The notes under the pieces are model-generated. The model was not told the origin of the DNA. It saw only the letters and a list, made by a program, of their open reading frames with translations, and did no database searches. Shown one piece after another: positions 11,310-54,000 of a DNA stretch of 64,000 nt. Position 1 is the stretch's first letter. Every line of letters begins with the position of its first letter. Location: positions 1-64,000 of the IMG/VR virus record IMGVR_UViG_3300032213_000610. One strand, 5' to 3'. The DNA is from a virus (lineage: Duplodnaviria; Heunggongvirae; Uroviricota; Caudoviricetes). A program made the translations under genes and the position numbers.

Positions 11310-11314
11310 GTTTG

Positions 11315-12520: not shown

Positions 12521-12526
12521 TTATCA

Positions 12527-15231: not shown

Positions 15232-15236
15232 ATACA

Positions 15237-20463: not shown

Positions 20464-20994
20464 ATGTTAGATAGGCTGATTGACGTTGTGTTACAATTTG
20501 GCTCAGACGTACTCCCTGGTATTATTATTAGGGATTACGAGGAGGCTGTACTTCTAAGATTTGGTAAATTTAAAAAGGTGTTAAAACCTGGATTCCATCC
20601 AAAGATACCATTTGTAGATGAAGTGATTGAGCAACATGTCGTTGTGACAACATTAAGTCTTCCAGCACAATCTTTGTATACTAGTGATAGACAGAACATT
20701 GTTGTCAAGGGTGTAATCAAATACAAGATATCAGATGTTAAAACATTCCTGTTAGAAGTGTTTGATGCCCAAGATGCAATAGCTGACATGTCACAAAGTG
20801 TCATAAAAAATGTAATCATGTCTATGTCCCTGGAAGAATGTACGGATGCGGAACTTGATAACACATTAACCAAGAAGGTAAGGGTTGAAGCAAGGAAGTG
20901 GGGTGTTGAAATTCAACAAGTTACGCTCACTGATCTAGCTCCAATTAAGAGTTATAGGCTAATAAATGACACAATTACAAACAATCTTGATTAG
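20464..20994 (+). CDS. SPFH / band-7 (stomatin/prohibitin-like) domain protein
   Basis: EEAVLLRFGKFKKVLKPGFHPKIPFVDEV…VTTLSL…NIVVKGVIKYKI matches the SPFH-domain pattern. Confidence 0.6.
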   Translation: MLDRLIDVVLQFGSDVLPGIIIRDYEEAVLLRFGKFKKVLKPGFHPKIPFVDEVIEQHVVVTTLSLPAQSLYTSDRQNIVVKGVIKYKISDVKTFLLEVFDAQDAIADMSQSVIKNVIMSMSLEECTDAELDNTLTKKVRVEARKWGVEIQQVTLTDLAPIKSYRLINDTITNNLD

Positions 20995-34111: not shown

Positions 34112-37100
34112 TATTAAGCAGGAGTACAACAGTGCTATATCTGGCTTAAACATGGATCAATCTGTAAATCAGGTTGAGAAGGGTAAGCTTACGTATGCAT
34201 TGAATGCTAGTGTTGAGAACTTTGACTCAGATTCTGTAAACTATCAGAATGAGCCAGGTAATGAGTTATGTCTAGACTTTCCTACAGGGTATCATTTAAT
34301 AGGAACTCATTTCATTGTTGAACAAAATAAACATGTATTCTTTCTAACTAATCCTGAAACAGAAGATAGTCAGATTGGATATATGGATAACAATGATTGT
34401 GTATATCGTATATACGTAAGTGCTAAATGTTTAGGCTTTGATGTAAAATATCCTATCCTTAAAGCTGTTCATAAGATTACCAATTGCACTACAGAAGTGT
34501 ATTGGACAGATGGTCTTAATCCTAGAAGATACATAGACCTAAATAATATTCCATATAAGTTAGCTCCTAATGCTGATTTATGTGATCCTATTTATACCAA
34601 TGAACTTGATTGTAATCAATTAAACGTTCAACCTAATTTTAACATTCCTTCATTAGAAGTAACTGATGTTACAACTGGTGGTGACTTAACTTCTGGCACA
34701 TATCAGTTTGCTATTCAGTATTGTGATGCAAGTGGTAATGCTTATTCATCTTTCTACTCTGTTACCAACCCTACACCTATTGCTAATACCAATGTCACTA
34801 CACCAGAGTTCTCTTATCAAGTTGGTAAGTCTATTGTAGTTAGTGTTGGTAATCTAGATACCACTGGATATTTCCAGTATTTTAATCTTGCTGTAATTAA
34901 GACAATAAATGCAATAGCTTCTGTTGAGCTTGTTGGTACATATTTTATTGAAGATGACACTAGAACCATAACTTATACAGGACAGAACGTTACACAGATT
35001 CGTCTTGCTATTGCTGATATATTTGAGAAATATCCATATTACGAGATAGCTCAAGACTTAACCACTGCCCAAGATGTTCTTATCTGGGATAACCTAACCG
35101 TTATTGATAGAATTAACTATCAATCAATTGCTAGTCAAATTGATCTTAAATGGGAAACTTATAGAATCCCTAGTACAGAAACCTATGCTGATGAACTAAA
35201 CGCTACAAATTTTAGAGGTTATCTAAGAGATGAAGTGTATGCATTTGAGATAGTGTTCTTGCTTAAGAACGGTAAGCAAACAGATGGTTTCCATATTCCT
35301 GGTAGAATGATTAGTGCTAATGAAGGTTCTCAACCAGATGTACCAAGCAGTAATCCTGACTTTATTGGAGAGGGTGCAAGTGCACCATATTGGAAGATTT
35401 ACAACACAGGTTCTGTAACAGGGTTTTCTCCTGGATATTCACCAAGTCAATCTTATAAAGGACCTTACCAATATGGTGAGTTTGCTTATTGGGAATCAAC
35501 AGACACCTATCCATGTAACATAGATTTATGGGGTGATCTTGCTAGTCAACCTATCAGACACCATAAGTTTCCTGATGTTCTTGTAAGTCCTATATACGAA
35601 AGTCCTACATACACATTGGGAGGAGCATTTGCACCAGTGATGCAAAATGATGCTGTATTCCCAATGGGTGTACAGATTGATGTTCAACAAGTTGCATACT
35701 TAGTGTATGCATCTAATCTTACACAGGCACAGAAAGAAAGCGTTGCAGGATTTAAGATTGTAAGAGGGGACAGAAGTACAAATAGATCTATTGTAGGTAA
35801 AGGTATTCTTAGAAACGTAGGTAAGTATAAGAGAGAAGAAACAGAATTCTACTTCCCTAACTATCCATATAACGATCTTAATAAGGATGAATTCCTTCTT
35901 GATAATAATAATGGTTATTGTGATGAATGTATCACGTACAAACTTGCTACCACAGGATCTACTATTGTAGAATATACAGACTGTTTTTCAAATACACTAG
36001 TAACTGAAACACTTGTTTCATCTCCAACTAATATATTTTCTCTAAGTACACCTATCATTACTTCTGGTACAGCAGTAGTTACTATAGTTCCTTATGATAC
36101 TTATAGACTAACTAGTAATAGCACTACAACATTTGAATCTAAAGATCCACTAACAGGTAACACTGTTGTCACTATAGTTAATGTTGGAGCTGTTCAATTT
36201 GTTAATTCTACAACTGTTCCAACAATCATTGGTGGTACATCAGATGCTACTATCACTAAACTATCAACTAGAAGATCATTAAAATATCCTAATAAACTAG
36301 ATGCATTTGCTACAGATGAATCTAAATACAGAATGGTATTTAACTCACCTGAAACATCTTTCGGACAACCTTTCTTAGGAACTGTCATGAAACTTGAGAA
36401 CGTTATGTTTGGTGGTGGTATAGCTCATTTTGTAGAGGTTAAGAGGAATGCTATGTATAAGCTTCTCACAGCAGAGGCTCAACGTGATGCTCTTAAATCT
36501 AGTGAGGACATTGGTCATATTACTGTAGACTTTAATGCATCAGCTATGTTTGCTGCATATCAAGCCTATCTGACCATCTACATAAATGGAATCACTAGAA
36601 GAAACTATGGGTATTCATTTAACTCAATAGCTAGTTATGATTACAGTGGAGCTATTGATAACAATCTAGGTATCAAGCAAAGACAATTAGACAATGCTCA
36701 ATATGTATTCCCTGGAGTGCAGTCTGTAAGTGACTTACATGATTTCAACAACTTCAATAGAGAATCATCTATATATGTAAAGACAGTTGATACTAGAGAT
36801 GGTTCATCAGTGATACCTTTACCATTCCCTAATCAAACTCCTAGTTTATTAGTTGGTGGTGTAAGTGGTATCTCTGATACATCAAGATTTACTATATCAC
36901 AAAAGAACAACTGTTCTGTACCTAATAAGAATGAAGCAATTAATGTAGTTTCTTATTATGGATCATTAAAGAACATCTTTATCAATCAGTGGGGTCAAAT
37001 ATATTCTTACGATACAATTGATACAGGTTTCCAAGAAAGCATTGACATTAACAGTTTAATGTTCTCTACACCTAACTCAGCTACTATATTTGGTGGAGAT

Positions 37101-39133: not shown

Positions 39134-40000
39134 ATGTCTAAAGTAATAACAATAAGATTAACAAAGGCTGGCATTAGAACTGGACCGTTTAAGATTTCTG
39201 ATAACTACGGAAATGTCTTAGGAACTAATATTCCTAAGAGCCAAGTTATTTCTGGAATCACCTATTCGGTTAGTGATGATGTCACTGTTATTATTATTGA
39301 ATCTATAGGGAAATGTAAAACAAGATTACAAATGCCTATAGAGGAACTATGTATTGCAGATGTGGCAGCTATCAAGTTTGTCCCTACAGATACAGCATCT
39401 TTATGGAGACACTTAACTAACACAACAATTTACAATATATTCTACGGAAACATAGAACCTTATATTATAGAATATCCATTTGCCTATCAGTATTATGATG
39501 AGATCTTACAGAATGTAAAAGATTACACAAAGGCATATAGATACCTCCCTATACCAGATGGTGTGTTCAATGATAACGCTAAGATAGAAACAAACACAGT
39601 TTATTTCAACAAAGCTGTCCTATACAATGGACAACAGTCTTCTGGTGTACTAGAACTAGTTCCTAAACCAATTAACAACTTAAAGGAATACTTGAAGTAT
39701 CCTATGTATAACGCTGATAGTAAGACGATTATGTTTACTAAATCAGATAATTTTTATCAATATAATACATTTTGGTCATTAGTTAAAGATAAATCCTTAC
39801 CTTTGTTTGTAACAGGTTGTGACTCATTGTCTATAGATAAGGTTGTAAATCAACCAAATATGGATTATGGAAAGAGATCATTTAAGAAAGAACCTCTACG
39901 TGCGAAAGATTTAAAGGTGAGACACGTCCTAGATAATAGATCAGATGCCCATTTGATAAGTCAATTCATTATCACACCATCTCAAATCTCTTACAAATAA
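39134..40000 (+). CDS. tail-associated protein (288 aa)
   Basis: ORF coupled (TAATG) to the next gene. Confidence 0.45.
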   Translation: MSKVITIRLTKAGIRTGPFKISDNYGNVLGTNIPKSQVISGITYSVSDDVTVIIIESIGKCKTRLQMPIEELCIADVAAIKFVPTDTASLWRHLTNTTIYNIFYGNIEPYIIEYPFAYQYYDEILQNVKDYTKAYRYLPIPDGVFNDNAKIETNTVYFNKAVLYNGQQSSGVLELVPKPINNLKEYLKYPMYNADSKTIMFTKSDNFYQYNTFWSLVKDKSLPLFVTGCDSLSIDKVVNQPNMDYGKRSFKKEPLRAKDLKVRHVLDNRSDAHLISQFIITPSQISYK

Positions 40001-43000
40001 TGGCTAACAACATTAACTGTACATGTGGACATTCTTGGAGCAAGGCAAGCTCTAGCAAGAAAGACATGTATGTATGTCATATATGTGGAAAGGATAACAC
40101 CATGGAAGACGGTGGATGGCTAAGTAAGTTTGAGCAAGGAGGAATGACCTTAGAACAAAAGGGTGATAACTATGGTACAAAACCTAATCCTAATGAGGTG
40201 GATGTGTCTGTAAGTCCTGATTTTGTAGGACTTTCTTATGATACAACAGGTAGAAACTATTCTCCTGCATGGGGTGGGCAATTTCAGAATGGTGGTAATT
40301 TATGGAATACAAATAAGACAGCATGGGTAGATAGTATTCATAATGCTAGAAAAGGTGATTTAAACTTTGTACAAAGAATGTTTGACCAACGTGCAGGATC
40401 AATACAAATACCTGGACAACCTGGTACATCTACACATTACATGGAATCAGGAGATGGAAAAGCATATCCTACTGTAGTACAAATGCCAAACGGAAAACTT
40501 CAGTACTTAAATCAAAATGATAAAGATGCTGCTTGGAACTATGCTAATAAAACAGGACAATTTATAAAGTTTCCTAATGATGAACAAGCTGAATGGTATG
40601 CAAATAATGGATATAAGAAAGGAACAAATGTATTAAAGAAAGCAATGGGTGGTAGCTTACCAGGTGCTGTAGGATTCACGTACGCACGTACAATCAATCC
40701 TGCTCCTAGTAATGGTAAGTATGCTAAGAAGACAAAAGCTTCTGCACAGAATGGTAAGGAGATGAAGTTTTACCAAGAAGGCTTGGATTTCAAACCTAAC
40801 AGTATTGCTCAGGATGGTGCTATTGTAGACCCAATGGGACAATGGGCACACCCAGGAGAAGTAACTATCATACCAGCTACAGACATAACAATGGAAGGGG
40901 TAGATTATCCCGTACTAGGAATATCTGATACAGGGGATACACAGATGATGTACCCTGGAGAAGACTATGATTTTGATGGTGAATATGTTACAGAGTATCC
41001 AATAATGAAAGAGGGTGGTTGGTTAAGTAAGTATCAATCTGGAGGTCCTTTATCTAGATCTAATCTAGAAACAATGGCAGCTCTTGAAAAGGACATTAAG
41101 AATCAGAAAGCTAGAAATGCTCAAGAAACTGTTTCTCAATACACTCCAAAACCTGGAGACCAACAGAGAATGAATGCAGCTAAAGATGCATATAGAGCAG
41201 AGGAAGCAAAACCTTTAAATAGAGCAGCTAGTTCAAGAGTGGCAGCTAAAGCTATGGAGAACATAGTAGAACCTATGTTAGTAATGGAAGGTGTGGCATC
41301 TGGCCTTAGTGGTGTACGTAGTCTAATGACTAAACCAAAATCTATTTCTCCTTCTTATGTTTCTAATCCTTATGAGAAGTCAGGATTCAATCCACTTGGT
41401 TTAGTAGATGATATAGCACCGAGAATAGATCCTATAAAAGCAATGGGTGTAGAGATGGATATAATGGACATGAGTCCTTTAAATCTTATACCTGGATACG
41501 GCAGAAAACTATCTGGTAAAAACCAGACGTTTAGAAAGTTTGGTAACTCTCTAGATGATGTTATACAAAGACAGGCATTAAGTCCTGCTGGTGGTTCTAA
41601 ATTCAGAATGGGCAGAGATCAGATAGTTAGTGAAGGAAACTGGGCAGCTAGAAATCAACCATCTGAAAATTATCCAGGTGTGTTTGAAGCCACCTTTGAT
41701 ATGAACAACCCTGATGCAAACTTATCTACACTTCAGGTACCTGATAGAAATGGTGTACTTATGGTTGATAAGGCAGGAAGAAGACTTTCTGAAATACCAC
41801 TTACAGAACCAGGTATGTCTTTTAACAGAAGGCTTCCTTTTTCTACAAGATATGTTCCTATTGACAAACAGAAGCTGATGAATAACGAGTTTCAGTTTGC
41901 TACCATGGCTCCACATTTACAAAGTCTTGCTGAGAAGTATACACTTGGACTAGGAGCTGCTAGTGTTTTAGGTAAAGAAACAAGAGATACTTATAACAAG
42001 TATACTATAGATCCAGTTATTGACATGGCTAAGAAGCTTGAAATTGAAAAACTTGGACTGAACGTTGACAAACGCAAAGATGGTGGCTGGTTAAGTAAAT
42101 TTGATACAGCTCAAAAAGGTAAGACTATTCCTAAACCTGAGCTTACTTCATCTAATATACCATATACACCAATAACCTTATCTACAAATGTTAAAGCTGG
42201 AACAAAAAAGCCAACCGTTACACTTTCATCTCAAGAGGAAATATTAGATGAACAACAGCAAAAGGAGAATGAAAATAAACCCATTGTTGAAAAGAAGTAT
42301 GAAAATATAGAGACTGTTAAACAAGATAATAGAACAGATTGGCAAAAAGGATTTGCTCAAAAACAGTTAGCAAATCTTATAGTACAAGAAGCTCAAGGAA
42401 CTTCTCCTTTTGCTCAAACATTAAGTTCTTTTACACCAACAGGATATAATCCAGAGGCTGGTAAGATAGCCGCTGAAAACATAGGACAAATGACTCCTAT
42501 GATGGGAACCACTAGATTATTTAACACTGTAAGAGATCCTGAAAATAATCCTTATGGTATTGGTCAAGGGAATGGATTTCTAGCAAATACATTAGGTACA
42601 TTAGGATTACTTGGAGATATTTTTGATGTAGGTGCTGTAAATGCCCCTGCTATAAAATCTGCAGGTAAATACCTTACCGAACAAACACCTTTAAAAAATA
42701 CTTATAAGTTAAATCCTTTTGCTTTCAAACCTACAGAAGAAATGATGTATAGAGGACTTGGAGTAGAGGGAATGGAAGATGCTTTTCAGTCTGGTGTATT
42801 TAGAGCTAAGCAAGATGTAGAACCTTCTATGGTAGGTAACTTTGATCTGTCTAAACGATTTGACAAAGCTTACTTTAGTCCAAAGTTTGATGTAGCAGAT
42901 CAATATGGACAAGGATATATTGCTGAGGTACCAAGAACAGCTTCTGATTGGGGAAAAAGATATAGTAAAAAAGAATGGAGTCAAATAGCTCAAAGAGACA

Positions 43001-44568
43001 TACCTATAACTGAAGGTAAGATATTACAGAAAGATTGGTTAAGAGGGTATAAAGAAGTTCCTCAACCAAGTGGTGTAGCAACCCCTAATTTAGGATCAGC
43101 AATTGAGCAATCAACTCCGTTAAAAAACATATCTGAAATAGAAGCAACATCTCCTAATGTAAAATCATCTTGGGAACCACAAGAACTTCCAGGATTACAC
43201 TTATCCTCTACAATGGAAGGAGGTCCAATTAGTAAGATAGTAGAACCTAAAACAGGACTTGTAAATGTAGAACAAGCGTTAGGTATTATAGCAAAAGAAT
43301 CAGGTGGTGCTAACAAAGCAAGTATTATAAAAAAGGCATTAGGAAAAGAACTTCCTAAGAAGATGGATTATAATGATTTTAGAAAAATAGTGCAGGATCA
43401 ACTTATTCCTTTAGATAAACAACTTGTTAATCATTCTTCTAACTATGGATTAGGTAGAGTTGGTTATCCTGGTCCAAAAAGAAGTAGTTTTGAAATGGCT
43501 ATTGAAAATAATAAAAAAGCAATTGCAGATTTAGAACAACAAATAACTTTAAAAAAATCATTAAACAGTCAAGATGATCTTGTTTTAAAAGATATTAAAC
43601 GATTAGAAGATGAACTGGCTGAAAGTAATAATCAAATAAATATTTCATTAAATGAGTTAAATAGATTACCAATAGAAAATCAAACACTTGTATTATCTAA
43701 TGTAGATAAATTTGGTAGAGGTTCTTCTGCTCATGGTAATCCTATGGAAACTCTTGGTCATGTTCATTTTATAAGAGACGCTGAATCACCAGATGTTCTT
43801 ACAATAACACAAATGCAATCTGATGCTTTTCAAGGCACACATAGATCAATGCCTAAAAGTTTAGAACATGCAGAGTTTTCTTTACAAAGTTTGGAAAATA
43901 TAGTGACTCAGCGTAATAGTATTCTTGAAAGTTTAAAAAAACAAAAAGAAGAACTACTTATAAATAAAGCAGATAAAGAAAGTATTAATCGGGTGAGTGA
44001 GCAAATTGATAATTTTACAAGACTTATAAAAGACCAAACTGGTTTTAATAAACTTAATAAAGTAGAGGTAGAAAACTTTGCACAGAAGTCATTATTAGAT
44101 AAAAATCATCAAGAAAGATATTTACAAGAGCTAGTGGATTATGCTGGTAAACGAGGTGATATAAATAAGATAAGAGTACCTACATCAGAAACTGCAGCAA
44201 AGGTCCAAGGTTATGAGGGTATTGAAGCTGAAGAAATTATAAAAAAATATAATGAGGCAATGGCAGCAAATCCAAACTACACTAAAGAAATTGCTGAAAA
44301 ATCGAATGAGAATGAAATAAAATTAATTAATGATGTTTTAAATGGAAAGTTAAAAGGTAAGATATATGAACCAGCTGCTACAACTATTCTTAAAAAATAT
44401 ACAGAACAACCTAAAGTTATTAAAAAATTATTTGGTGTAGAACCTAAGATGGTAACAGATAGTAAAGGTAACACCTGGTATGAGTTTGATATACCTAATA
44501 AGTTCAAAGGTGGTAAAGGGGAAATTAAAGCATTTAAAGATGGTGGTTGGTTAACCAAATATAAATAA
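40000..44568 (+). CDS. giant internal/ejected-type virion protein (1522 aa) with N-terminal zinc ribbon and four DGGWLSK[FY] motifs
   Basis: N-terminus CTCGHSW…CHICGKD. Motifs EDGGWLSKFEQGG, KEGGWLSKYQSGG, KDGGWLSKFDTAQ, KDGGWLTKYK at the C-terminus. Role inferred from size and position only. Confidence 0.45.
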   Translation: MANNINCTCGHSWSKASSSKKDMYVCHICGKDNTMEDGGWLSKFEQGGMTLEQKGDNYGTKPNPNEVDVSVSPDFVGLSYDTTGRNYSPAWGGQFQNGGNLWNTNKTAWVDSIHNARKGDLNFVQRMFDQRAGSIQIPGQPGTSTHYMESGDGKAYPTVVQMPNGKLQYLNQNDKDAAWNYANKTGQFIKFPNDEQAEWYANNGYKKGTNVLKKAMGGSLPGAVGFTYARTINPAPSNGKYAKKTKASAQNGKEMKFYQEGLDFKPNSIAQDGAIVDPMGQWAHPGEVTIIPATDITMEGVDYPVLGISDTGDTQMMYPGEDYDFDGEYVTEYPIMKEGGWLSKYQSGGPLSRSNLETMAALEKDIKNQKARNAQETVSQYTPKPGDQQRMNAAKDAYRAEEAKPLNRAASSRVAAKAMENIVEPMLVMEGVASGLSGVRSLMTKPKSISPSYVSNPYEKSGFNPLGLVDDIAPRIDPIKAMGVEMDIMDMSPLNLIPGYGRKLSGKNQTFRKFGNSLDDVIQRQALSPAGGSKFRMGRDQIVSEGNWAARNQPSENYPGVFEATFDMNNPDANLSTLQVPDRNGVLMVDKAGRRLSEIPLTEPGMSFNRRLPFSTRYVPIDKQKLMNNEFQFATMAPHLQSLAEKYTLGLGAASVLGKETRDTYNKYTIDPVIDMAKKLEIEKLGLNVDKRKDGGWLSKFDTAQKGKTIPKPELTSSNIPYTPITLSTNVKAGTKKPTVTLSSQEEILDEQQQKENENKPIVEKKYENIETVKQDNRTDWQKGFAQKQLANLIVQEAQGTSPFAQTLSSFTPTGYNPEAGKIAAENIGQMTPMMGTTRLFNTVRDPENNPYGIGQGNGFLANTLGTLGLLGDIFDVGAVNAPAIKSAGKYLTEQTPLKNTYKLNPFAFKPTEEMMYRGLGVEGMEDAFQSGVFRAKQDVEPSMVGNFDLSKRFDKAYFSPKFDVADQYGQGYIAEVPRTASDWGKRYSKKEWSQIAQRDIPITEGKILQKDWLRGYKEVPQPSGVATPNLGSAIEQSTPLKNISEIEATSPNVKSSWEPQELPGLHLSSTMEGGPISKIVEPKTGLVNVEQALGIIAKESGGANKASIIKKALGKELPKKMDYNDFRKIVQDQLIPLDKQLVNHSSNYGLGRVGYPGPKRSSFEMAIENNKKAIADLEQQITLKKSLNSQDDLVLKDIKRLEDELAESNNQINISLNELNRLPIENQTLVLSNVDKFGRGSSAHGNPMETLGHVHFIRDAESPDVLTITQMQSDAFQGTHRSMPKSLEHAEFSLQSLENIVTQRNSILESLKKQKEELLINKADKESINRVSEQIDNFTRLIKDQTGFNKLNKVEVENFAQKSLLDKNHQERYLQELVDYAGKRGDINKIRVPTSETAAKVQGYEGIEAEEIIKKYNEAMAANPNYTKEIAEKSNENEIKLINDVLNGKLKGKIYEPAATTILKKYTEQPKVIKKLFGVEPKMVTDSKGNTWYEFDIPNKFKGGKGEIKAFKDGGWLTKYK

Positions 44569-44586
44569 AACACACAAACGTTCAAT

Positions 44587-47500
44587 ATGAAAGATCAAAT
44601 CTTAAAGATCGCAAAAGTAAAGTCTGAAAAGGAATTCTATAAGAAGTATCCTACAGAAGAAGCATTCATGAAAGCTCATGGTAAAGCATTTAAGAAAGCT
44701 GCTATGGGTAAGACTATGGTTGCTAAACAGTTAACACAACTAACTGACTTTGCTAATCCTCCACAGGCTAATGTTGGTGCATACATAGGTGGTGACACTT
44801 ACCAAAATGCTGCTTTTAAATATGGTGACTTTGCTGATGAAGCAGATGCTAATGTTACAGGTAATGCTGCTCCAATGAGAGTGCAGAACGTTCAACCTCC
44901 TATGGGCGGTGCAAAACAAAACCCTTATGCTTTTAATGCAGGTACTACAGGAATGAGAAACATAGATTGGGAGAATGTAGGTGCTGATATACTTCCACAA
45001 CTAATGCAAATGCAAGGAGGTGGTATTATTTCTGCACAAGGAGGAGTAAGAATTCCTGCTTTTGCATCAACTATACCTACATCAACACGTCCTACTAAAG
45101 CACCTGCTGCTAACATGACCAACATTGGAAACATGTTAAGTAACCCAGCGTTTCAACAAGGTAAGATTAATCAAGCTAAAGGTTTAAAGATGTCTCCGTC
45201 TATGAAACCAACATCGTTAAGTAGCAAGATTGGTTCTGGTGTAATAAACAATGCTGGCAATATCCTACAGGGTATTAACATGCTTAGTGATGAGAGAAGA
45301 CAAAAGAAAATGGCAAAACAATCAGTTGCAGTAACTGATGTAGTGGGTAAGGCTGCTGGTACAAGACCTGAAATAAGTAAACGTAGATACGTTACTCAAT
45401 ATGATACTGCTATTCAACCAGGAGAATTAGGTAACCCTTATGGTGAAGGAACAACTCCTTTAGTGATGCAAGATGGTGGTGGTATTGGAGGTAATCCAAC
45501 TGAGATTCAAAATACATTTGATCCAAATACAATATATACAAACCTTGAATACGAACCATTGAATGATCGTAATATTAAACAATACAATAAAGGTGGTAAG
45601 TTAAAGAAAGCTCAAGTTGGTGCTGGTATTTCTGGTCAACTAGGTGGTGGTTTAGGTAGTGTTATTGGTGGTGGTAGATTTAGTCAAGCTGGTGGAGCTG
45701 GTAAGATTGGTTCTACACTTGGTGGTATTGCAGGAAGTGTTATCCCTGGTGTAGGTACAGTTATTGGGTCTGCAGTTGGTGGATTAATTGGTGGTGCTAT
45801 TGGTGGTAAGAATGCAAGAGAAACTGCAGATCTTGAAGAACAAGCACAGAACAACATCATGGGCTCAGCATTACAACAAGGTGCTCGATCAATCCAATCT
45901 AACTATAGTGGATTTATGCAAGATGGAGGATACATTGAATATCCACAAGCTCAAGCTGGTACAATTGCAGATAGATCTGTAGGTCAGTTCTGTGGTATTC
46001 AACGTGGTATCAATAAAGAAAATGCAAGAATGAACGCAGAGGCTGCTAAACAAATGAAAGGATTAGAAAGACAAGCTACTAGAGATGAGAAACAAGCTGC
46101 AAAAGAGGCAGCTGCTGCACTAGCTGGTCAGACAGAACTTACACATGAATTTGATGATACTCCTTTAGACAAAAAGGTGGTAAAACAATTGAATGCTATT
46201 AGAGATCAGTACTTGCAAACTAATCCTAATGTATTTGTAGCAGATGATACATCTGGATATACTCCTCAACAGAAGTATGCTCTAGCAATTAAATTGATGG
46301 ATAAAGGAAGTCGTCACACTTTTGGTCAGGCATTTCAAAATCAGTTTGGTGTTCCTTCTAAAGGAATAGGTAGTTTAGAACGTGTTCATTCAGAATTAGT
46401 ACCTAAGATGGGTGGATGGGAAGGTGTAAAAAACTGGTTATTCAATCCTATACCACTTAAGTATTATAACATGAAAGAAGATGGTGGATGGGTAAGTAAT
46501 GATTGGCAGCCACAGGTGATTGCTAGCTTTGGTGAACATAAAATGAAAGACTTATTAAAACCTCCTCATGATGCACCAATGTTAAGAGCTGGTGGTCATT
46601 TAAAAGAATACACTGCTCCTAGTGAAAGAGCTATGGAAACATATGATATGGGTGGTGAACTTGAAACACATTGGGGTGGATATATGGAACCTATTTCTCA
46701 AAACCCTTACCTACCAGACGGTGGGGTTACAGTGATGCCTAGAGGACAATCTCATTCAGAGAGTGATGGCAAAGGTAACACAGGTATTGGTATTACATTT
46801 GGTGATAATCCTGTAGAAGTAGAAAGAGGTGAACCTATGGTTAAACTTAAAGATGGTGGTACAGGGGAAGACAATCTAGTGGTGTTTGGTAACATGAAGA
46901 TACCTAACTACGGTTTAGAAGATTTCGATAAGAAAGCTAAGGGTAAGAAGTTTAAAACTTATGCAGCTGATTTAACTGAAACAGAAGCTAAACAAAATAA
47001 GCTAATAAATAAATCAACTGAGAAACTAGATGATCTAGACATGCTTACAGAATTTGACAAACTAGAGTTAAACTCATTACAAGCAAATATTATGGGTGGT
47101 AATATGAAACTAAAAGATATTGCTGACAAGAAACAAAAACTTGGTGACTTACAACAGTCTATACATGCCACTGCTCCTGAGTTTGGATATGAGGATGTAG
47201 ACAAGTTTAATAAAGATGTTATGAAAGGAAAGGTTAAAGCTAAGAAAGGAAAGGTTAATTCTGATATGCCAGAAGCTCAATATGGTTTCAATATAAACAA
47301 AATTGTTCCTCAAGTTAATGTGCCTGGTAAAACACCTCTACCTGATCCAAATGCATCATACCCAGCAAATAGTGCTGTACAAAAATTAATAAAAAGTATT
47401 GTACCTCAACAACCAGTTGCTAACTTCCCGTTAAGACCAGGGTTTATGTACAATCCTCCTGCTTATTTATATCAAAACGTTCCAGCTGTTAATTACAATG

Positions 47501-48426
47501 TTGGTGCAGGGATTCCTACAGTGACAGCACTTAATGCTCCCACTGCTTTAAATATGTATAATCCTGGTTCTCCTGGTTTCCAACCAACTGGAAGTAGATT
47601 ACAAGCTCCTGCAAAAGGACCAGGTGGTAGAGGTATATTTGGTACTATTGGTGATTTCATAAATGAGAATCTTGAAGACAATGGTTCTACATTAGTTAAT
47701 CAATTACTACCTTATTTAAGACCTACAAATCAGACTCCTTTAGATCCTATACAATTGGCTGGAGAGATGTATGCTTTGGCTAACAATCAGGTGGAACCAG
47801 TGTATGCTCAAACTCTACAACCTAGATTAGGCTCACCAATTGATATATCATTACAGAGTGCACTCAATGCTAATCAGGCAGATTACAATGCTTTGCTTAA
47901 GAATGTAGGATATAACCCTGCTGCTCAGTCTTTGTTAGCTGCTCAGAAGTATGAGGCTAATTCTGAGATTAAAGGAAAAGAAGCTCAAATGAACAAGGAA
48001 GAAAGAGCAAGAGTGTTTAATGAAAACAGACAATTGTTGAATGAATATGACTTTAAGAATGCAGGTATCTTGGATCAACAAATGGTAAGACAATCACAAG
48101 CTAGGTCTAATACTAAAGCTCAAACACAAGAAGCTCTTAACTCTATTGGTAATAAATACCTTCAGAATAAGAGAGAGAATAGAGAGGTGGGCATGAATGA
48201 GAACCTTTACAACTTCAGATATGATAGTAGAGGTAGACTTATTAACATGAATCCTCTAGCTCAATTTGCTATTCCAAACATAGCTAATCAACCACTAGCT
48301 CAACAAACAACAGCAACTGCTAACAAAGACTACATTCCTGTATACGATAAAGATCGCAAGAATATAGTTGAGTATGTTAAGAAGGCAAAGAATGGCAATA
48401 TTGTTAAAGCTATCAAAAATCTATAA
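44587..48426 (+). CDS. giant glycine-zipper virion protein (1279 aa), candidate ejection/pore-forming or tape-measure-like protein
   Basis: Gly-zipper stretch GAGISGQLGGGLGSVIGGGRFSQAGGAGKIGSTLGGIAGSVIPGVGTVIGSAVGGLIGGAIGG. [DE]GG[WY] motifs recur (EDGGWVSNDW, QDGGYIEY, KDGGTGED). Confidence 0.45.
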   Translation: MKDQILKIAKVKSEKEFYKKYPTEEAFMKAHGKAFKKAAMGKTMVAKQLTQLTDFANPPQANVGAYIGGDTYQNAAFKYGDFADEADANVTGNAAPMRVQNVQPPMGGAKQNPYAFNAGTTGMRNIDWENVGADILPQLMQMQGGGIISAQGGVRIPAFASTIPTSTRPTKAPAANMTNIGNMLSNPAFQQGKINQAKGLKMSPSMKPTSLSSKIGSGVINNAGNILQGINMLSDERRQKKMAKQSVAVTDVVGKAAGTRPEISKRRYVTQYDTAIQPGELGNPYGEGTTPLVMQDGGGIGGNPTEIQNTFDPNTIYTNLEYEPLNDRNIKQYNKGGKLKKAQVGAGISGQLGGGLGSVIGGGRFSQAGGAGKIGSTLGGIAGSVIPGVGTVIGSAVGGLIGGAIGGKNARETADLEEQAQNNIMGSALQQGARSIQSNYSGFMQDGGYIEYPQAQAGTIADRSVGQFCGIQRGINKENARMNAEAAKQMKGLERQATRDEKQAAKEAAAALAGQTELTHEFDDTPLDKKVVKQLNAIRDQYLQTNPNVFVADDTSGYTPQQKYALAIKLMDKGSRHTFGQAFQNQFGVPSKGIGSLERVHSELVPKMGGWEGVKNWLFNPIPLKYYNMKEDGGWVSNDWQPQVIASFGEHKMKDLLKPPHDAPMLRAGGHLKEYTAPSERAMETYDMGGELETHWGGYMEPISQNPYLPDGGVTVMPRGQSHSESDGKGNTGIGITFGDNPVEVERGEPMVKLKDGGTGEDNLVVFGNMKIPNYGLEDFDKKAKGKKFKTYAADLTETEAKQNKLINKSTEKLDDLDMLTEFDKLELNSLQANIMGGNMKLKDIADKKQKLGDLQQSIHATAPEFGYEDVDKFNKDVMKGKVKAKKGKVNSDMPEAQYGFNINKIVPQVNVPGKTPLPDPNASYPANSAVQKLIKSIVPQQPVANFPLRPGFMYNPPAYLYQNVPAVNYNVGAGIPTVTALNAPTALNMYNPGSPGFQPTGSRLQAPAKGPGGRGIFGTIGDFINENLEDNGSTLVNQLLPYLRPTNQTPLDPIQLAGEMYALANNQVEPVYAQTLQPRLGSPIDISLQSALNANQADYNALLKNVGYNPAAQSLLAAQKYEANSEIKGKEAQMNKEERARVFNENRQLLNEYDFKNAGILDQQMVRQSQARSNTKAQTQEALNSIGNKYLQNKRENREVGMNENLYNFRYDSRGRLINMNPLAQFAIPNIANQPLAQQTTATANKDYIPVYDKDRKNIVEYVKKAKNGNIVKAIKNL

Positions 48427-48512
48427 CCAATTTAATTATACCAGATTAACAAAAATCATTAGAACTCTTGGTATATATAATAATTTAAATTACATTTGCT
48501 AATCATATTATC

Positions 48513-51086
48513 ATGGCATCATTTACCGACCAAATATCAAAATTTAATCCTTACGTAGAACAGCTTCCCGTTGAAACGATGAAGCAGGTGGGTCTGTATA
48601 AACAGCAGAAGTATGATGAGGGTGTTGAGAAAATCCAGGGATATATAGATACTATTGCTGGACTTGACGTTATGCATGACTCAGATAAGGAATATTTGCA
48701 ATCTAAGCTTAATGCTTTGGGTAACAACCTTAAAGGTGTTGCTGCTGGAGACTTCTCTAACCAACAACTTGTTACTTCTGTAGGAGGTATGGCTACACAA
48801 ATTAGTAAAGATTATAATGTTCAGAATGCTGTATCTTCCACCAGTTGGTATAGAAAACAAACTGAAGCTATTGAGGCAGCTAGAAAGGAAGGTAAAACTG
48901 CAGCATCTAATATTGATGATTGGGAAGAACAAGTGAAAGGATGGCTTGGTAAGAAAGAAGCTGGACAAGTGTTCAGAGGACAATATAGTCCTTACAGAGA
49001 TGTAAACAAAAAGATATTTGAAGCAATCAAACTTGTACACTCTGATGCTCAAAGTCTTGATACAGCCTATGGTCTTGATAAAGATGGTAAGGTGGACATG
49101 AATAATGTACTAGCTGCATTAAAAAGACAGGGGATTGAAACTGTAGATGAAGGAAAACTTCGTACAGCTATTGGTGCTGCATTAGATTCAGAAGATTACC
49201 ATCAGTTATACATTGATGGTAAATACCAATTAAAATCTACCACTCCTGAACAGCTTATGAACTATGCTACTAAGGATTATCAAAGATCAAAAGATTACGC
49301 TAAGGCACAAATTGAAAGAATCAATAAAGACCTATTAACTGCATCTACAGCAACTGGTCAAGCTAGACTATTAGAAAGTAGAAAACATTTTGAAGAAGTG
49401 TTAGGTGATCCAGCTAAGGGTATAAAAGGAACATTAGATCAAAACTTTGAAGCTACATTGCAGTCTATTAAAGATAATCCTAATGCTGCTAGAGGTAAGA
49501 TATATACAAAGAATTATATAGATCAGTTTGCTAATGGGTATGCTTGGGCTAATGTTAAAGATGAATTGCTTAATAATCCAGTTAGAGAAGACTATTGGAA
49601 AGCTAAAAATTATAACCTTGCGGTAATTAGTGAAGATCGTGATTGGGTAAAAGCACGATTTGATATGTCTATTGCTGCACGTACAGCTGATAGAGAAGAT
49701 AGAAAAGAGGCTAGAGAAGAACAAGAAAGACTTGGCAGTTCTCCTTTCTTTATAAGAAGTGGTGATCCAACCACTGATACTAATACAGCATATGCAAACT
49801 ACACTGCTAGTAATGCTAAACTAGAAGATCAAAACAATGGTATTCTAAATGATTTAGCAGGCAAGTCTAGCACATTAACAACTAAAGTTTTACCAGCAGA
49901 TATTCTTAAAAATATTAATAATTATCAAGACGGTAAATATAAACCTAAAACAAGGTATGAAGCTCAACAAATGGAGGCTTATATAGATAATCAAAATAAG
50001 CTAGCTAATCAAAAGGCAATCCATGATGAACTTCAAAATCAAGCTACAAAAGAAATTACAGGAACAACGTATGATGGATACTTAAAAGGTATTATAGGAA
50101 ACAGAAGACCTATTACACTTACAGATAAGAATGGACAGAAAGTTACATTTAGTGCAAATGAAGTTTATAATTATCTTTCTAAAGAAAAAGCTACAACAGA
50201 TGTTGCTGGTGATACTCCTGTATCTACAATTAAAATTACAGAACCATTAACCCCTAAAGAAAAATTATTACAGGAGAAACTAAAGAATAGATACTTAGGG
50301 TTACCTGGAGGAGATAAAGTGTTAAATGCTTACATTTCTGATTTTGATAAAGTTAAATCTCAACAGTTTAAAACTGATAAACAAATTGCATTAAAGACTG
50401 CTGAGAAGTTAGCTCCTATAACTGGAGGTTTTGCAACTGAACAAGCTGGTATAGTGTTTGCTAAAGCAGATGATAAAGCTAAACTTGTAACAGATTTAAC
50501 AAATATTGCTCAAGCAGATCTTCAACAAAAAACTGGTGCTCTTGGTTATGTACCTAAAAATTTCATTGCATATCTTACTAAAAAACCTTTAGAAAATGTT
50601 GATTTCCAAACAGTTAGAAAAGGTGATGAATATTTTATAAAAGCTGTAGATAAAACTAATCCAGATGATGTTGAATTAATGCCAGTGACTAAATCTTTTG
50701 TGGCTCAAAATCCACAGCTAGGAAATAAATATCTAAATCAAAATACTGACTTAGCTGATATATTGCTTAGAAACAGTGGATCAACTAATGCATTTAAAGA
50801 TTACAAACACGCTAGCTATCAAAATGGTAAGCTTGGTAATTATGATGTAAATGGAAAGAAGACAGTAAATATACCTGTAGTGGCAGATCTAGAATATATG
50901 GGTGGTCAGTTATATCCTGTTTTCCGTTTTAGAACAAAAGATGGTAACTTTATTAACGTGACATCTTTTGAACCAACAAGTAGAAAAGCTTTTGAAGAAC
51001 AGTATTTACCATCTTTAACAGATGAGAAACTTATGAATTTATTTAAGTCTGCAAATCCTAATGCAGATCAATTAATACAAAGATAA
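48513..51086 (+). CDS. large virion protein (857 aa)
   Basis: Long ORF immediately upstream of the giant gene. Spurious antisense ORFs overlie it. Confidence 0.45.
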   Translation: MASFTDQISKFNPYVEQLPVETMKQVGLYKQQKYDEGVEKIQGYIDTIAGLDVMHDSDKEYLQSKLNALGNNLKGVAAGDFSNQQLVTSVGGMATQISKDYNVQNAVSSTSWYRKQTEAIEAARKEGKTAASNIDDWEEQVKGWLGKKEAGQVFRGQYSPYRDVNKKIFEAIKLVHSDAQSLDTAYGLDKDGKVDMNNVLAALKRQGIETVDEGKLRTAIGAALDSEDYHQLYIDGKYQLKSTTPEQLMNYATKDYQRSKDYAKAQIERINKDLLTASTATGQARLLESRKHFEEVLGDPAKGIKGTLDQNFEATLQSIKDNPNAARGKIYTKNYIDQFANGYAWANVKDELLNNPVREDYWKAKNYNLAVISEDRDWVKARFDMSIAARTADREDRKEAREEQERLGSSPFFIRSGDPTTDTNTAYANYTASNAKLEDQNNGILNDLAGKSSTLTTKVLPADILKNINNYQDGKYKPKTRYEAQQMEAYIDNQNKLANQKAIHDELQNQATKEITGTTYDGYLKGIIGNRRPITLTDKNGQKVTFSANEVYNYLSKEKATTDVAGDTPVSTIKITEPLTPKEKLLQEKLKNRYLGLPGGDKVLNAYISDFDKVKSQQFKTDKQIALKTAEKLAPITGGFATEQAGIVFAKADDKAKLVTDLTNIAQADLQQKTGALGYVPKNFIAYLTKKPLENVDFQTVRKGDEYFIKAVDKTNPDDVELMPVTKSFVAQNPQLGNKYLNQNTDLADILLRNSGSTNAFKDYKHASYQNGKLGNYDVNGKKTVNIPVVADLEYMGGQLYPVFRFRTKDGNFINVTSFEPTSRKAFEEQYLPSLTDEKLMNLFKSANPNADQLIQR

Positions 51087-51088
51087 CA

Positions 51089-54000
51089 ATGCCAGGAACC
51101 GATTTATATTCTACGCAAGATAACGTACTGCCTACCAATAAGATAATGGAAGTTGGATCCCCTAAGGTATCTGGCCCTATGAATCTATTTGTTGAATCTG
51201 GTGAAAGAAGAGCAGACTATCTGCCTCCATTACCTGAACAGATTGCTCCTACAGTTACTACAAAAGAATTGTATGACAATAGGAAGTTTGGATTATACAA
51301 TCCAAATAAGACAGAGGAAGATTATGCTTATGGTCAATCTGCTTTAGATAAAGCTGGTAATGGTATAGCTAAACTTGCTGGTACTACAGCATCAACTATT
51401 GTTAATAACACAGTTGGTCTATTATATGGAATAGGTGCTGCAACGGTTAACCAAAGGTTCTCATCGTTATATGATAATGAGTTCTTTAAAAGAATGGACG
51501 CTGCTTCTGAGGAGATGAGAAATATGTTTCCTCACTATTACACAGAAGCAGAAAAGAAAGATCCTCTTGCATTAAAGTCTGTATTTACAGGTAACTTTTT
51601 ATGGGATAAGATTGTTAGCAATCTAGGATATGCAGCTGGTGCTGCTGTAACTGCTTATGGAGCAACTGCTGCATTAGAAGCATTACAACTATCAAAAGGA
51701 TTGGTAGCTGCTGGTAGAGGATTACAAGCATTAGAAGCTACAGAAGCTGGAATAGCTGAAGGTAGAGGTATGGCTGGTATAGTTCAAGCATTAAAGAATC
51801 CAAGATCTGTTGCAAGTAAACTTGGTCAAGGATTAGAATCATTAGGTACAATAGAAGCAGGGGCACAAGCTTCTAAAGCCACCCAATTACTATCTTCCTA
51901 TTTAGGTATATCTGGAGAAGCTGGTATGGAAGGTTTTCAGAATGCTAAACAGTTCAGAGAAAATGCTATTGCTAAATTTAAGAAAGAGAACGGTGGTCTA
52001 GAACCAACTGGTCAAGACTTACAGAATATTCAAGATGCAGCAACAAGTGTTGGTAACTGGAGTTATGGTTTAAACGTAGCCCTACTTACAGGAACTCAAT
52101 ATGTACAGTTACCAAAGATATTTGGTTCTACATATGCTGGTGAGAAGAAGATATTAAACAATGTTATATTTAAAGATAACTTATGGAAATCTTCTCTTCC
52201 AGAGAAAGGTTTTGGTAAGTTCTTATATAAGACTGGTAAGGTGGGGTCTTTATTCTTTAATACAGCAGAAGGTTTTGAAGAAGGTGCACAATTTGCTATT
52301 GGAGAAGGAACACAAAACTTCTTTAATAAGAAATATAGAAGTGGTGACCAAACAAGCTTCTGGAACTCTCTTGGTGGTTTATTAATGCCAGGTGGAGAAG
52401 GTGTATTAGGTTATGGTACAGGTCAAGCATTAACAACTGACGAAGGATTAGAAAACATATTAATAGGTGGTTTGTCTGGAGCATTAATGACTTCAGGTGT
52501 TGTAGGTACCAAAAGAACAGAATCTGGTGCTACAGTTCCTACCATGTTCCAAACTGGTAAGATTGGAGAAAGAGGTTTCACTGGATATGGTGGAGAAAGA
52601 GGTAGATTTACAGAGGAAGCTACAAAAGCATTAAACTCAGCGAAGGTTACAGACTTAATTGATTCTGTAAACAGAGCAATGACCATCAATGAAGATAGAG
52701 AGAAAACATTAAGACAAGGTGATATTCTACAGAGTAAAGATCTTGAAACTGATTACATGTTAAACTATCTTCTACCAAGAATTAAGTATGGTGGAGAAAC
52801 TATATTTGAAACAGAACTAGATGCCATTAGACAAAAGGCAGCAACAGATGCTGGTTTTGGGGAACTTAAGTCTGCAGGTACAGCAAATGAAAATGACACT
52901 CAAGAAGCATTCATAGCTAGAGCAAATAACATTCAAGCTATGGCTAAGACTGTAACTGAGAACTATGATAAGTTCAAGACCAAGTATGCTGGCTTAGCTA
53001 AGACTAAAGAAGATGGTACTCCTGAGCTAGATGCAGATGGTAACTTACAAAGGAAGTATGACGATGCTACAGTGGACAAGATGGTATACACTGCATCTAA
53101 GATATTTGACTATAACACTAGAATCCCTGCACTAACTACTAAACTATCTACTAGTAATGTAGATGTAACCACTATATTAGGTGAGATTAATTTCACTGGT
53201 AAACCAACTGTAGAATCAGTTGAAGAAGCATTGAAGACAATCAATGATTTAAATGAAACTGATTCTAATAAGACTGAATTAAAAACTTCTCTACAGGATG
53301 TTATTGAATTAGCATTACGTAGAAACAAGTTTATTGATGAGTTCAATAACATTGAAAAGAATCCAGAGAAGTATAAAGAGGGTGTTGATGAAACTATCAC
53401 TAAAGGTGATACGGTTAAGATTAAGCAGTTTGATACTGGCGATAAAGGAAAGATTGTAAGTAAAGAGATTGAGATAGGTAAAGAGTATTCTTTAGCTAAT
53501 CCTCTAGCTAACGTAGGTGGTAAGTTACAATTTGCTCCTAAGTTAACTGTCCTTTCTAAGACATTGAGAGGTGAGTTTGAAGTGAGACTTCCTAATGGTG
53601 AGAGAGCTTTCTTATCTCCTTCAGACTTCAAGAACTACCAATTGTTTGGTGCTTCAGAAGATACCAGTACACTAGAAGATATATTAGACAAGGCTATTAA
53701 TAAGGTGTTGTCTAAGAGTAAATATAATGATGTAGTTAAACCTACAGAAAATAAATTAGAATATATTAACTCATTGAATAACAGTGAGTTAGTAGATGAG
53801 ATTGAAAACGAATTTAGAGCTCAGTCTGAAGAATACTTAAATGAAAGTGCTAAGGAACAAGAAGCTATTGAATCTGCAAACCTTGAAAAAGAGTTAGTAG
53901 AAACTCAAGATGTAGATAATGTTCCAACAGCAGACTTTGATTCTGGTTCATTTGATCCTAGTCCTAAAAAGACAGATCAACAAGTAGTTGATAGTACTAG

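Follow-up and report, generated by a model that had tools for sequence, protein, structure and literature searches.

Cargo proteins of crassviruses and comparable systems

To our knowledge, it is poorly understood how podoviruses select the proteins that are loaded into their particles and in which order these leave, and the crassvirus cargo seen so far consists only of fragments of one protein. In the phage ΦcrAss001, the gene of the muzzle protein gp44 is followed by those of cargo protein 1 (C1, gp45) and cargo protein 2 (C2, gp46) and then by gp47, gp49 and gp50 (PMC10172136). Both cargo proteins were found in virions by mass spectrometry; aa 425-552 of gp45 are bound to the portal, a transmembrane (TM) helix was predicted at aa 136-158 of the same protein, and the AlphaFold model of gp46 is largely alpha-helical (PMC10172136). 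The Pfam model CARG1 covers aa 424-555 of gp45, and a glycine-rich hydrophobic segment extends over aa 125-160, with IGAIVGGVVGLGSAIGGWL at aa 140-158.

The Cellulophaga phages phi17:2 and phi4:1, in the same way as the locus described here, have three large genes between the muzzle gene and the gp47-like gene (gp042/041/040 and gp041/040/039, respectively). For phi4:1, MS/MS proteomics underlies the annotation of all three as virion proteins. The annotation of phi17:2 gp040 derives from phi4:1 gp039, which is likewise placed before the gp47-like gene, and phi17:2 gp041 is the counterpart of the virion protein phi4:1 gp040. A further class to be considered is that of the polyvalent proteins, which are injected multi-domain proteins of phages and conjugative elements (Iyer et al. 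2017, PMC5512222); the terms 'linker' and 'crAss' were not found in that paper.

Organization of the locus

The window analysed here is a stretch of 64,000 nucleotides (positions 1 to 64,000 of the IMG/VR record IMGVR_UViG_3300032213_000610, Caudoviricetes), and the features given below all lie on its + strand. An earlier note on this DNA had drawn attention to three consecutive very large proteins as candidate cargo or ejection proteins. The three ORFs are indeed present at the positions given there, with lengths of 1522, 1279 and 857 aa (ORF1, ORF2 and ORF3), all on the + strand and each with an ATG start; no terminator-like site was found on this strand inside the three-gene block. TerL, a P22-like portal, Crass_capsid, CrAss_Ring_1, a Ring2-like protein and the muzzle are all encoded upstream, and the order in the window is Ring2, Ring1, muzzle, ORF1, ORF2, ORF3 and gp47-like/RNAP, the same order being found around the block in a related contig. 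The hosts of the nearest deposited phages are Leptolyngbya, Cellulophaga and Flavobacterium, or the phages are of human gut origin.

The gene adjoining the block upstream had been taken for a tail fibre, which has to be corrected: it is a crassvirus muzzle gene (34089..39122, 1677 aa; Pfam PF25731 crAss_MUZ, E 2.4e-36; phrog_37948, E 1e-100), followed by a separate ORF of 288 aa (39134..40000). The former matches the muzzle genes of Lbo-JY46, phi17:2 and csAssE-Sib in tblastn, and the latter is the counterpart of the C-terminal part of the muzzle in relatives, since it matches aa 1461-1654 of the Lbo-JY46 muzzle (BLASTP, E 1.5e-25), aa 2057-2254 of the csAssE-Sib muzzle and the C-terminal end of phrog_15100. 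The stop of the 288-aa ORF overlaps the start of ORF1 by 1 nt, and the muzzle is also split in the related contig (1775 + 288 aa). The downstream boundary was correctly placed before an RNAP-like giant gene. This ORF (51089..64000) has at least 4304 aa and runs off the window; its frame is open from 51062, with the first ATG at 51089, and its counterpart in a relative has 4404 aa. It consists of a gp47-like N-terminal half fused to the catalytic part of a virion RNAP, with DFDID at aa 3445, and its BLASTP matches are crAss001 gp47, phi17:2 gp039, phi14:2 gp66 and crAss001 gp50.

On the basis of this synteny with ΦcrAss001, together with homology to C1 and to phi17:2 proteins, the placement of the three genes in a cargo or ejected-protein block is supported, and ORF1 to ORF3 probably encode the internal cargo (ejection proteins) of a distant crAss-like podophage. 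Synthesis of the three proteins would fall in the late phase; they would be enclosed in the capsid and the tail barrel and leave through the muzzle, either before the DNA or along with it. The layout of the locus, its synteny, the homologies, the shuffling of modules and the motif counts given below were observed, and from them we infer packaging, the order of ejection, insertion into membranes and the function of the motif. The functional analogy is to T7 gp14/gp15/gp16 and P22 gp7/gp16/gp20, in each case three internal podovirus proteins that leave ahead of the DNA; here one protein has a putative membrane segment, and among the relatives one has a transglycosylase, like T7 gp16. The same T7/P22 analogy was drawn for ΦcrAss001 (PMC10172136). 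No sequence or fold similarity to the solved T7 core proteins (gp14/15/16) was found for the proteins of the block. The absence of an obvious enzymatic motif was borne out, in that searches of Pfam, PHROGs and PDB sequences gave nothing specific and none of ORF1-ORF3 could be assigned an enzymatic domain or a solved fold; the Pfam models crAss_CARG1 and crAss_CARGO2 did not match ORF1-ORF3 at E ≤ 0.1.

ORF2, a C1-like protein

ORF2 (44587..48426, 1279 aa; 1410 homologues) appears to be a distant relative of crassvirus cargo protein 1, and its assignment as the C1 counterpart, by remote homology to the portal-bound domain, is moderate, not conclusive. The ORF2 family profile aligned over aa 686-836 (46642..47094) in hhalign to a 28-sequence CARG1 profile with Prob 85%, E 6.2e-6 and 33% identity; the Prob value rose from 67.6% to 80% and then to 85% as the CARG1 profile was enriched, and seven control profiles (ORF1 modules, ORF3) gave at most 1.2% against CARG1. 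The domain aligns to gp45 aa 421-532, the part resolved on the portal wing, and the signatures GGxLxTxGG, G-SH-E, VE-GE and IP are common to both. No Pfam family matched ORF2 at E ≤ 0.1 and the gathering score of PF25725 was not reached; for comparison, this model gives 222 bits for gp45 and 40.9 bits for phi14:2 g070. The phi17:2 and phi4:1 proteins showed no similarity of the ORF2 kind, either to CARG1 or to the glycine-zipper.

The glycine-zipper that had been noted at about 45600-45800 was confirmed by Gly content, GxxxG motifs and Kyte-Doolittle hydropathy as a hydrophobic segment at aa 343-413 (45613..45825): the region of aa 336-420 has 33% Gly and holds 11 of 20 GxxxG motifs, and aa 385-403 is the sole Kyte-Doolittle window above 1.4 in ORF1-ORF3 (maximum 1.58). 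As in gp45 (C1, PF25725), this segment is N-terminal of the CARG1-like domain and the gene is located between those of the muzzle and the RNAP. ORF2 differs from gp45 in its length (1279 versus 842 aa) and in being the second rather than the first gene past the muzzle; moreover, it has an extra insertion (aa 451-625) and a C-terminal block common to a separate gene of Lbo-JY46. This block (aa 1036-1279, 47692..48423), which is one of the three conserved parts of ORF2 along with aa 1-450 and 630-900, matches Lbo-JY46 XAI97384 with hhalign Prob 90% and E 1.5e-6 and with BLASTP E 4.8e-5. In the proposed mechanism, the portal inside the capsid would be the docking site of the CARG1-like domain, and the glycine-zipper would enter the host envelope and contribute to the conduit.

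It could be argued that the three proteins are external or structural parts of the tail (tail-tip lysin, fibre or needle, or tape-measure-like) and not internal cargo, considering that the first post-muzzle protein is annotated as 'tail protein' or 'tail lysozyme' in phi14:2, phi17:2 and csAssE-Sib and that the Gly-rich stretch of ORF2 matches a tape-measure PHROG (phrog_10093, E 3.7e-4). That match is confined to aa 346-410, a Gly-rich stretch of low complexity, and for this reason a tape-measure role of ORF2 was rejected; the surrounding genes are of the crass type (P22-like portal, ring proteins, muzzle) and not those of a long-tailed phage. No tail-fibre family was matched by ORF1-ORF3, and this stretch is their sole likeness to a tape-measure family. 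We regard external tail parts as very improbable and keep to internal cargo.

ORF3, a uniform helical protein

ORF3 (48513..51086, 857 aa; 1714 homologues) is uniform and mostly helical, and without exception its gene lies directly before the gp47-like one. Most of the homologues listed are full-length, with 840-890 aa. The AF2 model has a pLDDT of 78, and its fold matches crAss-like phage proteins in Foldseek, among them one of NIOZ-UU157 (E 1e-27) and a structural protein of phi17:2 (E 1.6e-10); homology to phi17:2 gp040 was also found with hhalign (Prob 81%, E 1.2e-5). A gene of this family directly precedes the gp47-like gene in the related contig, Lbo-JY46, csAssE-Sib, phi17:2 and phi4:1 as well.

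ORF3 resembles gp46 (C2, PF25712) in occupying the slot directly upstream of the gp47-like gene and in being predicted as largely alpha-helical, and it differs in length (857 versus 534 aa) and in showing no sequence or profile similarity. Homology to C2 was tried and rejected: hhalign gave Prob 0.1% against gp46, and PF25712 matched neither ORF3 nor 57 members of its family. The tblastn matches of gp46 are mainly from Bacteroides and uncultured gut crAss-like phages, and the phages with a protein matching the fold of ORF3 are not among them. The equivalence of ORF3 to C2 is thus kept as a positional one only, and ORF3 would be a conserved helical cargo protein that travels with the gp47-like/RNAP giant in the place of cargo protein 2.

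The constant neighbourhood also raises the question of whether ORF3, possibly with the C-terminal block of ORF2, is an accessory subunit of the virion RNAP complex rather than a channel or ejection protein. The family invariably adjoins the gp47-like gene, the gap between the ORF3 stop (51086) and the ATG of the giant ORF (51089) being 2 nt here, and it is uniform in length and conserved over its full length, unlike ORF1 and ORF2. Nevertheless, ORF3 has no similarity to any RNAP-associated protein and adjacency by itself does not show a physical complex, and we consider such a subunit unlikely. It would refine and not replace the cargo interpretation, because ORF3 would still be packaged.

ORF1, a modular protein of the probable polyvalent type

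ORF1 (40000..44568, 1522 aa) is a modular, cassette-shuffled protein and probably cargo of the 'polyvalent' type, with modules that are shuffled and permuted among its 1318 homologues. It gave no match itself in Pfam, PHROGs or the PDB, and most of it was modelled with low confidence (AF2, mean pLDDT 58). The Zn ribbon attributed to one of the three proteins is present at its N-terminus (C7-x-C9 ... C26-x-x-C29, a CxC..CxxC pattern; 40018..40086) and turned out to be optional: among the 120 homologues listed, 31 keep the pattern and the others are missing it, most of these beginning directly with MAKWLDKYEQGG. Module M3 (aa 215-350, 40642..41049) is constant and defines the family, being covered by 100-117 of the 120 homologues listed. 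Its second half (M3b) is also present in phi17:2 gp041, at the N-terminus of that protein (aa 27-87; hhalign Prob 88%, E 2.9e-6), and in Lbo-JY46 XAI97386 (aa 14-99; BLASTP E 2.6e-8), a protein with weak, sub-threshold Pfam matches to transglycosylases. The only part of ORF1 that folds confidently is module M8 (aa ~1067-1512, 43198..44535), for which AF2 predicted an alpha/beta core with long helical hairpins at a pLDDT of about 80-95 (model residues 745-1190). It has the conserved consensus signature ETLGHxH / TQxQSDAFQ and found no fold match in the PDB, the best Foldseek E being 0.34.

Several other relationships were tried and rejected. An ADP-ribosyltransferase (ART) in module M7 (aa ~850-1040), suspected from YRG...FS...AEV, was unsupported: the putative Ser and Glu of an ART are not conserved, AF2 confidence is low, and a profile of 18 diverse sequences had no PDB match at E ≤ 10 and no relevant one in Pfam. 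ORF1 and ORF2 are not paralogues by BLASTP, their common part being only a motif of approximately 10 residues, and CARG1 similarity of the ORF1 modules was dismissed with hhalign values of at most 1.2%.

Like the polyvalent proteins, the ORF1 family is large, has many modules, is encoded among virion genes, and varies in its combinations of ART-PolyVal, transglycosylase, amidase and phosphatase domains. The domains found in homologues are ART-PolyVal, ADPrib_exo_Tox, SLT, Amidase_2+LysM, PG_binding, His_Phos_1 and DUF6321, all but the last of which sit in modules that ORF1 is without; the ART, SLT, amidase and PG-binding domains are of a sort that injected proteins typically have. The Phage_lysozyme2 domain in the first gene of the phi17:2 and phi4:1 blocks is likewise missing from ORF1. 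In contrast to the polyvalent proteins, ORF1 has no recognisable enzymatic domain of its own, and in its family the N- and C-terminal elements are fixed and a dedicated peptide (WLxKY) marks the junctions. By the polyvalent criterion, the location of ORF1 among virion or late genes, with the muzzle on one side and the C1-like gene on the other, would imply packaging and injection. ORF1 is probably a carrier of variable payload, in which conserved N-terminal segments and a conserved C-terminal tail frame interchangeable modules. In relatives, such modules are cell-wall hydrolases, ADP-ribosyltransferases or phosphatases; here, all five or more are orphans with no assignable activity. A putative effector role of ORF1 rests on these relatives, because neither an enzymatic nor a wall-degrading domain is recognisable in ORF1.

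The GG-WLxKY junction motif

The modules of ORF1 are delimited by a linear motif, GG-WLxKY, which is present in five copies: GGWLSKF at aa 38-44 (40111..40131), GGWLSKY at aa 339-345 (41014..41034), GGWLSKF at aa 695-701 (42082..42102), a variant (DWLRGYKEV, with WLRGY at aa 1013-1017, 43036..43050) identified by alignment at the end of M7, and GGWLTKYK followed by the stop at the extreme C-terminus (44542..44565). In the alignment of the variant (A4), the residues W, L, G and Y show little or no variation. The pattern WLx[KG][YF] occurs 333 times in the 120 ORF1 homologues listed, against 1.75 expected from shuffles, and not once in the ORF2 or ORF3 families. GGW is found within the last 12 residues in 96 of these 120, and in most family members the motif is separated from the N-terminus by 2-3 residues (MAKWLDKY...) and from the C-terminus by 1-2. 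The motifs of ORF1 fall in segments with pLDDT below 50 in the AF2 model. Shuffling breakpoints in the family are 3.4-fold enriched at motifs; the largest hot spots (aa ~100, ~210 and 250-270) are not at WLxKY motifs.

A DNA-level recombination joint was rejected as the origin of the motif, since four copies differ synonymously and only about 20 nt of DNA are common to them; conservation thus acts on the peptide. A likeness to the start of CARG1 (FGGWLNTQGG) was also set aside, as it extends over only ~10 residues and includes a Trp that CARG1 sequences do not conserve. None of six motif strings of the junction peptide was found in the papers searched, and phi17:2 gp041 and gp042 gave no alignment with the motif-bearing profiles of ORF1.

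The location of the motif in flexible linkers between independently shuffled modules would also be expected of a polyprotein, with GG-WLxKY as the points where a protease of the phage or the host would cut the modules free before packaging or after ejection. Polyvalent proteins were proposed to be proteolytically processed, and DdrB of P1 is processed before packaging (PMC5512222); each piece freed from ORF1 would share its tail with the natural C-terminus. However, no protease domain was found with Pfam and PHROGs in ORF1-3 or in the scanned ORFs of the structural block, the peptides of ΦcrAss001 gp45 cover much of that protein without reported processing (PMC10172136), and most family members have terminal copies, where cutting would free nothing. 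For us, a polyprotein is an improbable explanation. Because copies of the motif are also placed right at the N- and C-terminal ends of family proteins, we take GG-WLxKY to be a putative docking peptide, short and linear, for a site that recurs within the virion, and not a cleavage site; candidate sites would be the portal, the ring or the muzzle. Docking on a hub protein of the host is a weaker alternative.

Implications for crAss-like phages

The cargo block is extended by this locus to a large uncultured clade of crAss-like phages, with >1300 to 1700 homologues per protein. A tentative reading, possible though in our view doubtful, is that GG-WLxKY is a portable address tag, such that modules between two copies are recruited inside the virion and delivered in a fixed order. 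If this were true, docking would take place at the portal wing, ring or muzzle, genes of the ORF1 type would be plug-and-play cassettes for protein delivery, and orphan modules such as M8 (ETLGHxH) would be unexplored host-takeover or anti-defence effectors. The junction peptide would offer a cheap experimental handle on cargo selection, read out as virion content, and the ORF1 family, rapidly shuffled between fixed ends, may serve as a catalogue of candidate injected effectors without a known fold.

Gene organization

The window comes from a crAss-like phage. Its rightward structural block is parted from a leftward block (1-13069, - strand) by a strand switch at ~12000-15800, where GC and AT skew change sign. 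The block begins with TerL (15846-17876) and includes, likewise on the + strand, a P22-like portal (17876-20461), the Crass_capsid major capsid protein (22416-23969), a tail-fibre-like protein (28050-29171), a Ring2-like protein (31978-32706), CrAss_Ring_1 (33188-34111) and a muzzle protein of 1677 aa (34089-39122; crAss_MUZ, E 2.4e-36). A small ORF directly 3' of the portal gene (20464-20994) matches a 'lipoprotein' PHROG family (E 3e-10). Within the tail-gene block, a 416-aa protein (30728-31978) matches the 'DNA repair exonuclease' family phrog_704 (E 6e-46); phi14:2, too, carries a gene for a calcineurin-like metallophosphatase beside its tail genes.

The three large consecutive ORFs described in the earlier note were found as ORF1 (40000-44568, 1522 aa), ORF2 (44587-48426, 1279 aa) and ORF3 (48513-51086, 857 aa), all on the + strand and with ATG starts. 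They are tightly packed, and no + strand terminator-like site was seen inside the block. The note had placed them after the tail fibres and before an RNAP-like giant gene; the second part holds, but it is the muzzle that precedes them, since 34089-39122 encodes the muzzle and a separate 288-aa + strand ORF (39134-40000) is equivalent to the muzzle C-terminus of relatives. The muzzle sequence is thus divided between two ORFs, 11 nt apart, whereas in Lbo-JY46 and csAssE-Sib it forms one protein; the split is not a sequencing error, as it recurs (1775 + 288 aa) in a related metagenomic contig. In one related contig the gene order is identical. The nearest deposited phages are distant, with muzzle identity of at best 33% (Leptolyngbya phage Lbo-JY46, Cellulophaga phages phi17:2 and phi4:1, and csAssE-Sib).

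The downstream giant ORF

An open frame runs from 51062 to the window end, which it leaves; from its first ATG (51089) it encodes at least 4304 aa, and its counterpart in a related contig has 4404 aa. Residues 76-418 match phi17:2 gp039, 1989-2188 crAss001 gp47, 2895-3689 the catalytic virion RNAP phi14:2 gp66, and 2968-3772 crAss001 gp50; a DFDID motif lies at aa 3445 (nt 61421-61435). The RNAP-like character that had been ascribed to this gene is borne out, and the ORF is, judged by these matches, a fusion of a gp47-like protein with an RNAP catalytic subunit. In ΦcrAss001, phi14:2 and Lbo-JY46, by contrast, these parts occupy two or three genes.

ORF2 and the cargo proteins of ΦcrAss001

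In ΦcrAss001 the gene order is muzzle (gp44), cargo proteins C1 (gp45) and C2 (gp46), and gp47; a virion holds about 6-12 copies of C1 and C2. The virion cargo identified by mass spectrometry comprises gp45, gp46 and three RNAP-associated proteins; gp45 has a predicted TM helix (aa 136-158), and its residues 425-552 are found on the portal wing and 214-245 in the tail barrel (PMC10172136). The Pfam families crAss_CARG1 (gp45 aa 424-555) and crAss_CARGO2 (gp46) match none of ORF1, ORF2 and ORF3.

ORF2 has 1410 homologues, with conserved blocks at aa 1-450, 630-900 and 1036-1279 and variable inserts at 451-625 and 900-1035. Its family profile (aa 686-836) was found to align with gp45 aa 421-532, the CARG1 domain, and support grew as the CARG1 side was enriched from a single sequence (Prob 67.6%, E 5e-5) to profiles of 5 (Prob 80%, E 1.4e-5) and 28 sequences (Prob 85%, E 6.2e-6). 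As controls, the ORF3 profile and the profiles of six or seven ORF1 modules were compared with the same CARG1 profiles and reached at most 1.2%. The signatures GGxLxTxGG, G-SH-E, VE-GE, IP, KGKxF and pxDpL are common to ORF2 and CARG1. The glycine zipper noticed earlier at ~45600-45800 is present at ORF2 aa 343-413 (nt 45613-45825); the surrounding aa 336-420 contain 33% Gly, 11 of the 20 GxxxG motifs of ORF2 and the only strongly hydrophobic 19-residue window among ORF1-3. As in gp45, this segment is N-terminal to the CARG1-like domain. The C-terminal block has its match in a separate Lbo-JY46 gene of 484 aa (Prob 90%). With moderate confidence, ORF2 may be regarded as the counterpart, and a distant relative, of C1.

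ORF3

Among the listed members of its 1714 homologues, most have 840-890 aa and align over their full length; the N-terminal ~130 residues are most conserved. AF2 gave a usable model (pLDDT 78), helical in its N-terminal two-thirds and mixed alpha/beta in its C-terminal third. Against viral models, Foldseek retrieved crAss-like phage proteins, including NIOZ-UU157 (E 1e-27), a 974-aa 'structural protein' of phi17:2 (E 1.6e-10), cr127_1, cr271_1, a phi14:2 structural protein and others. The profile aligns with phi17:2 gp040 aa 1-245 (Prob 81%, E 1.2e-5), whose phi4:1 counterpart gp039 was annotated, with its neighbours gp040 and gp041, from MS/MS virion proteomics. By tblastn, the N-terminus matches, in both Lbo-JY46 and csAssE-Sib, the gene that directly precedes the giant genes. 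Taken together, these matches and the gp039 annotation point to ORF3 as a conserved putative virion protein in the C2 slot, a positional equivalence that carries no claim of homology to C2.

Residues 1-19 (48513-48569; MASFTDxIxQFNPYVQQLP) are near-invariant in 57 homologues with identity to ORF3 down to 29%, and are modelled as disordered (pLDDT <50) despite this conservation. They look like a binding peptide that has been conserved.

Modular organization of ORF1

The 1318 homologues of ORF1 show patchy coverage. Of the 120 homologues listed, 100-117 have the constant pieces (aa ~40-100 and 215-350) and only 17-61 any given cassette (aa ~100-215, 350-690, 700-850, 850-1040 and 1050-1510); the cassettes come in varying orders and combinations, permutations included. 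An N-terminal Zn ribbon had been proposed, and ORF1 indeed starts C7-x-C9...C26-x-x-C29; among the 120, most proteins that lack it start MAKWLDKYEQGG. Other cassettes of the homologues are ART-PolyVal, ADPrib_exo_Tox, SLT, Amidase_2+LysM, PG_binding_1, His_Phos_1 and DUF6321. Across the family, this architecture is that of 'polyvalent proteins', whose injection together with DNA has been proposed (PMC5512222). The second half of the aa 215-350 piece also occurs at the N-terminus of phi17:2 gp041 (Prob 88%), the counterpart of the phi4:1 virion protein gp040, and in Lbo-JY46 XAI97386, the first gene 3' of the muzzle in that phage; the Pfam matches of XAI97386 to transglycosylases are weak and below threshold.

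ORF1's own cassettes gave no match in Pfam, PHROG or PDB, and in agreement with the earlier note, Pfam, PHROGs and PDB sequence searches returned no enzymatic family for ORF1-3. In the AF2 model of aa 323-1522, confidence is high only at aa ~1067-1512 and moderate at ~562-682, and Foldseek found no PDB relative for the model. The confident region (nt 43198-44535) is present in 61 of the 120 homologues and carries a conserved signature, GSxxHxNPxETLGHxH ... TQxQSDAFQ, which might be a metal site.

The junction peptide

The motif [KE][DE]GGWL[ST]K[FY] occurs in ORF1 at aa 38, 339, 695 and the extreme C-terminus, with a variant, DWLRGYKEV, at 1012-1020. Among the 120 listed homologues, GGW was counted 283 times (14 expected) and WLx[KG][YF] 333 times (1.75 in shuffles); the latter is absent from the ORF2 and ORF3 families. 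The motifs fall in AF2 segments of pLDDT <50, and shuffling breakpoints are enriched 3.4-fold within 15 residues of them, with further hot spots at Gly-rich linkers. The DNA copies in ORF1 differ at synonymous sites, so it is the peptide on which selection acts. ORF2 has one related copy, EDGGWVSNDW, opening its universally conserved block, and an insert bordered by FMQDGGY and KEDGGW. Where the portal-bound domain of gp45 first becomes resolved, its sequence is A-F-G-G-W-L-N-T-Q-G-G, a resemblance that is a lead rather than demonstrated homology; in CARG1, GG is invariant and Trp is not.

Such a peptide could be a site of processing or of docking. Cleavage is less favoured: GGW lies within 12 residues of the C-terminal end in 96 of the 120, copies of WLxKY stand at the very termini, where a cut would free nothing, and no protease was detected in ORF1-3 or the scanned structural-block ORFs (Pfam/PHROGs). 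WLxKY is hence preferred as a candidate docking peptide. Neither its motif strings nor a cassette-shuffled polyvalent first gene of a cargo block was found in the literature searched.

Proposed mechanism

The phage would probably make the products of ORF1-3 together, package them in the capsid and tail barrel, and let them go when the muzzle opens. ORF2 would dock at the portal via its CARG1-like domain and supply the segment that inserts into the membrane; ORF3 would travel with the RNAP giant, and ORF1 would deliver variable payloads. Synteny, remote homology and the proteomics of a cultured relative support the note's reading of ORF1-3 as a cargo block, a variant of the module known from crassviruses.
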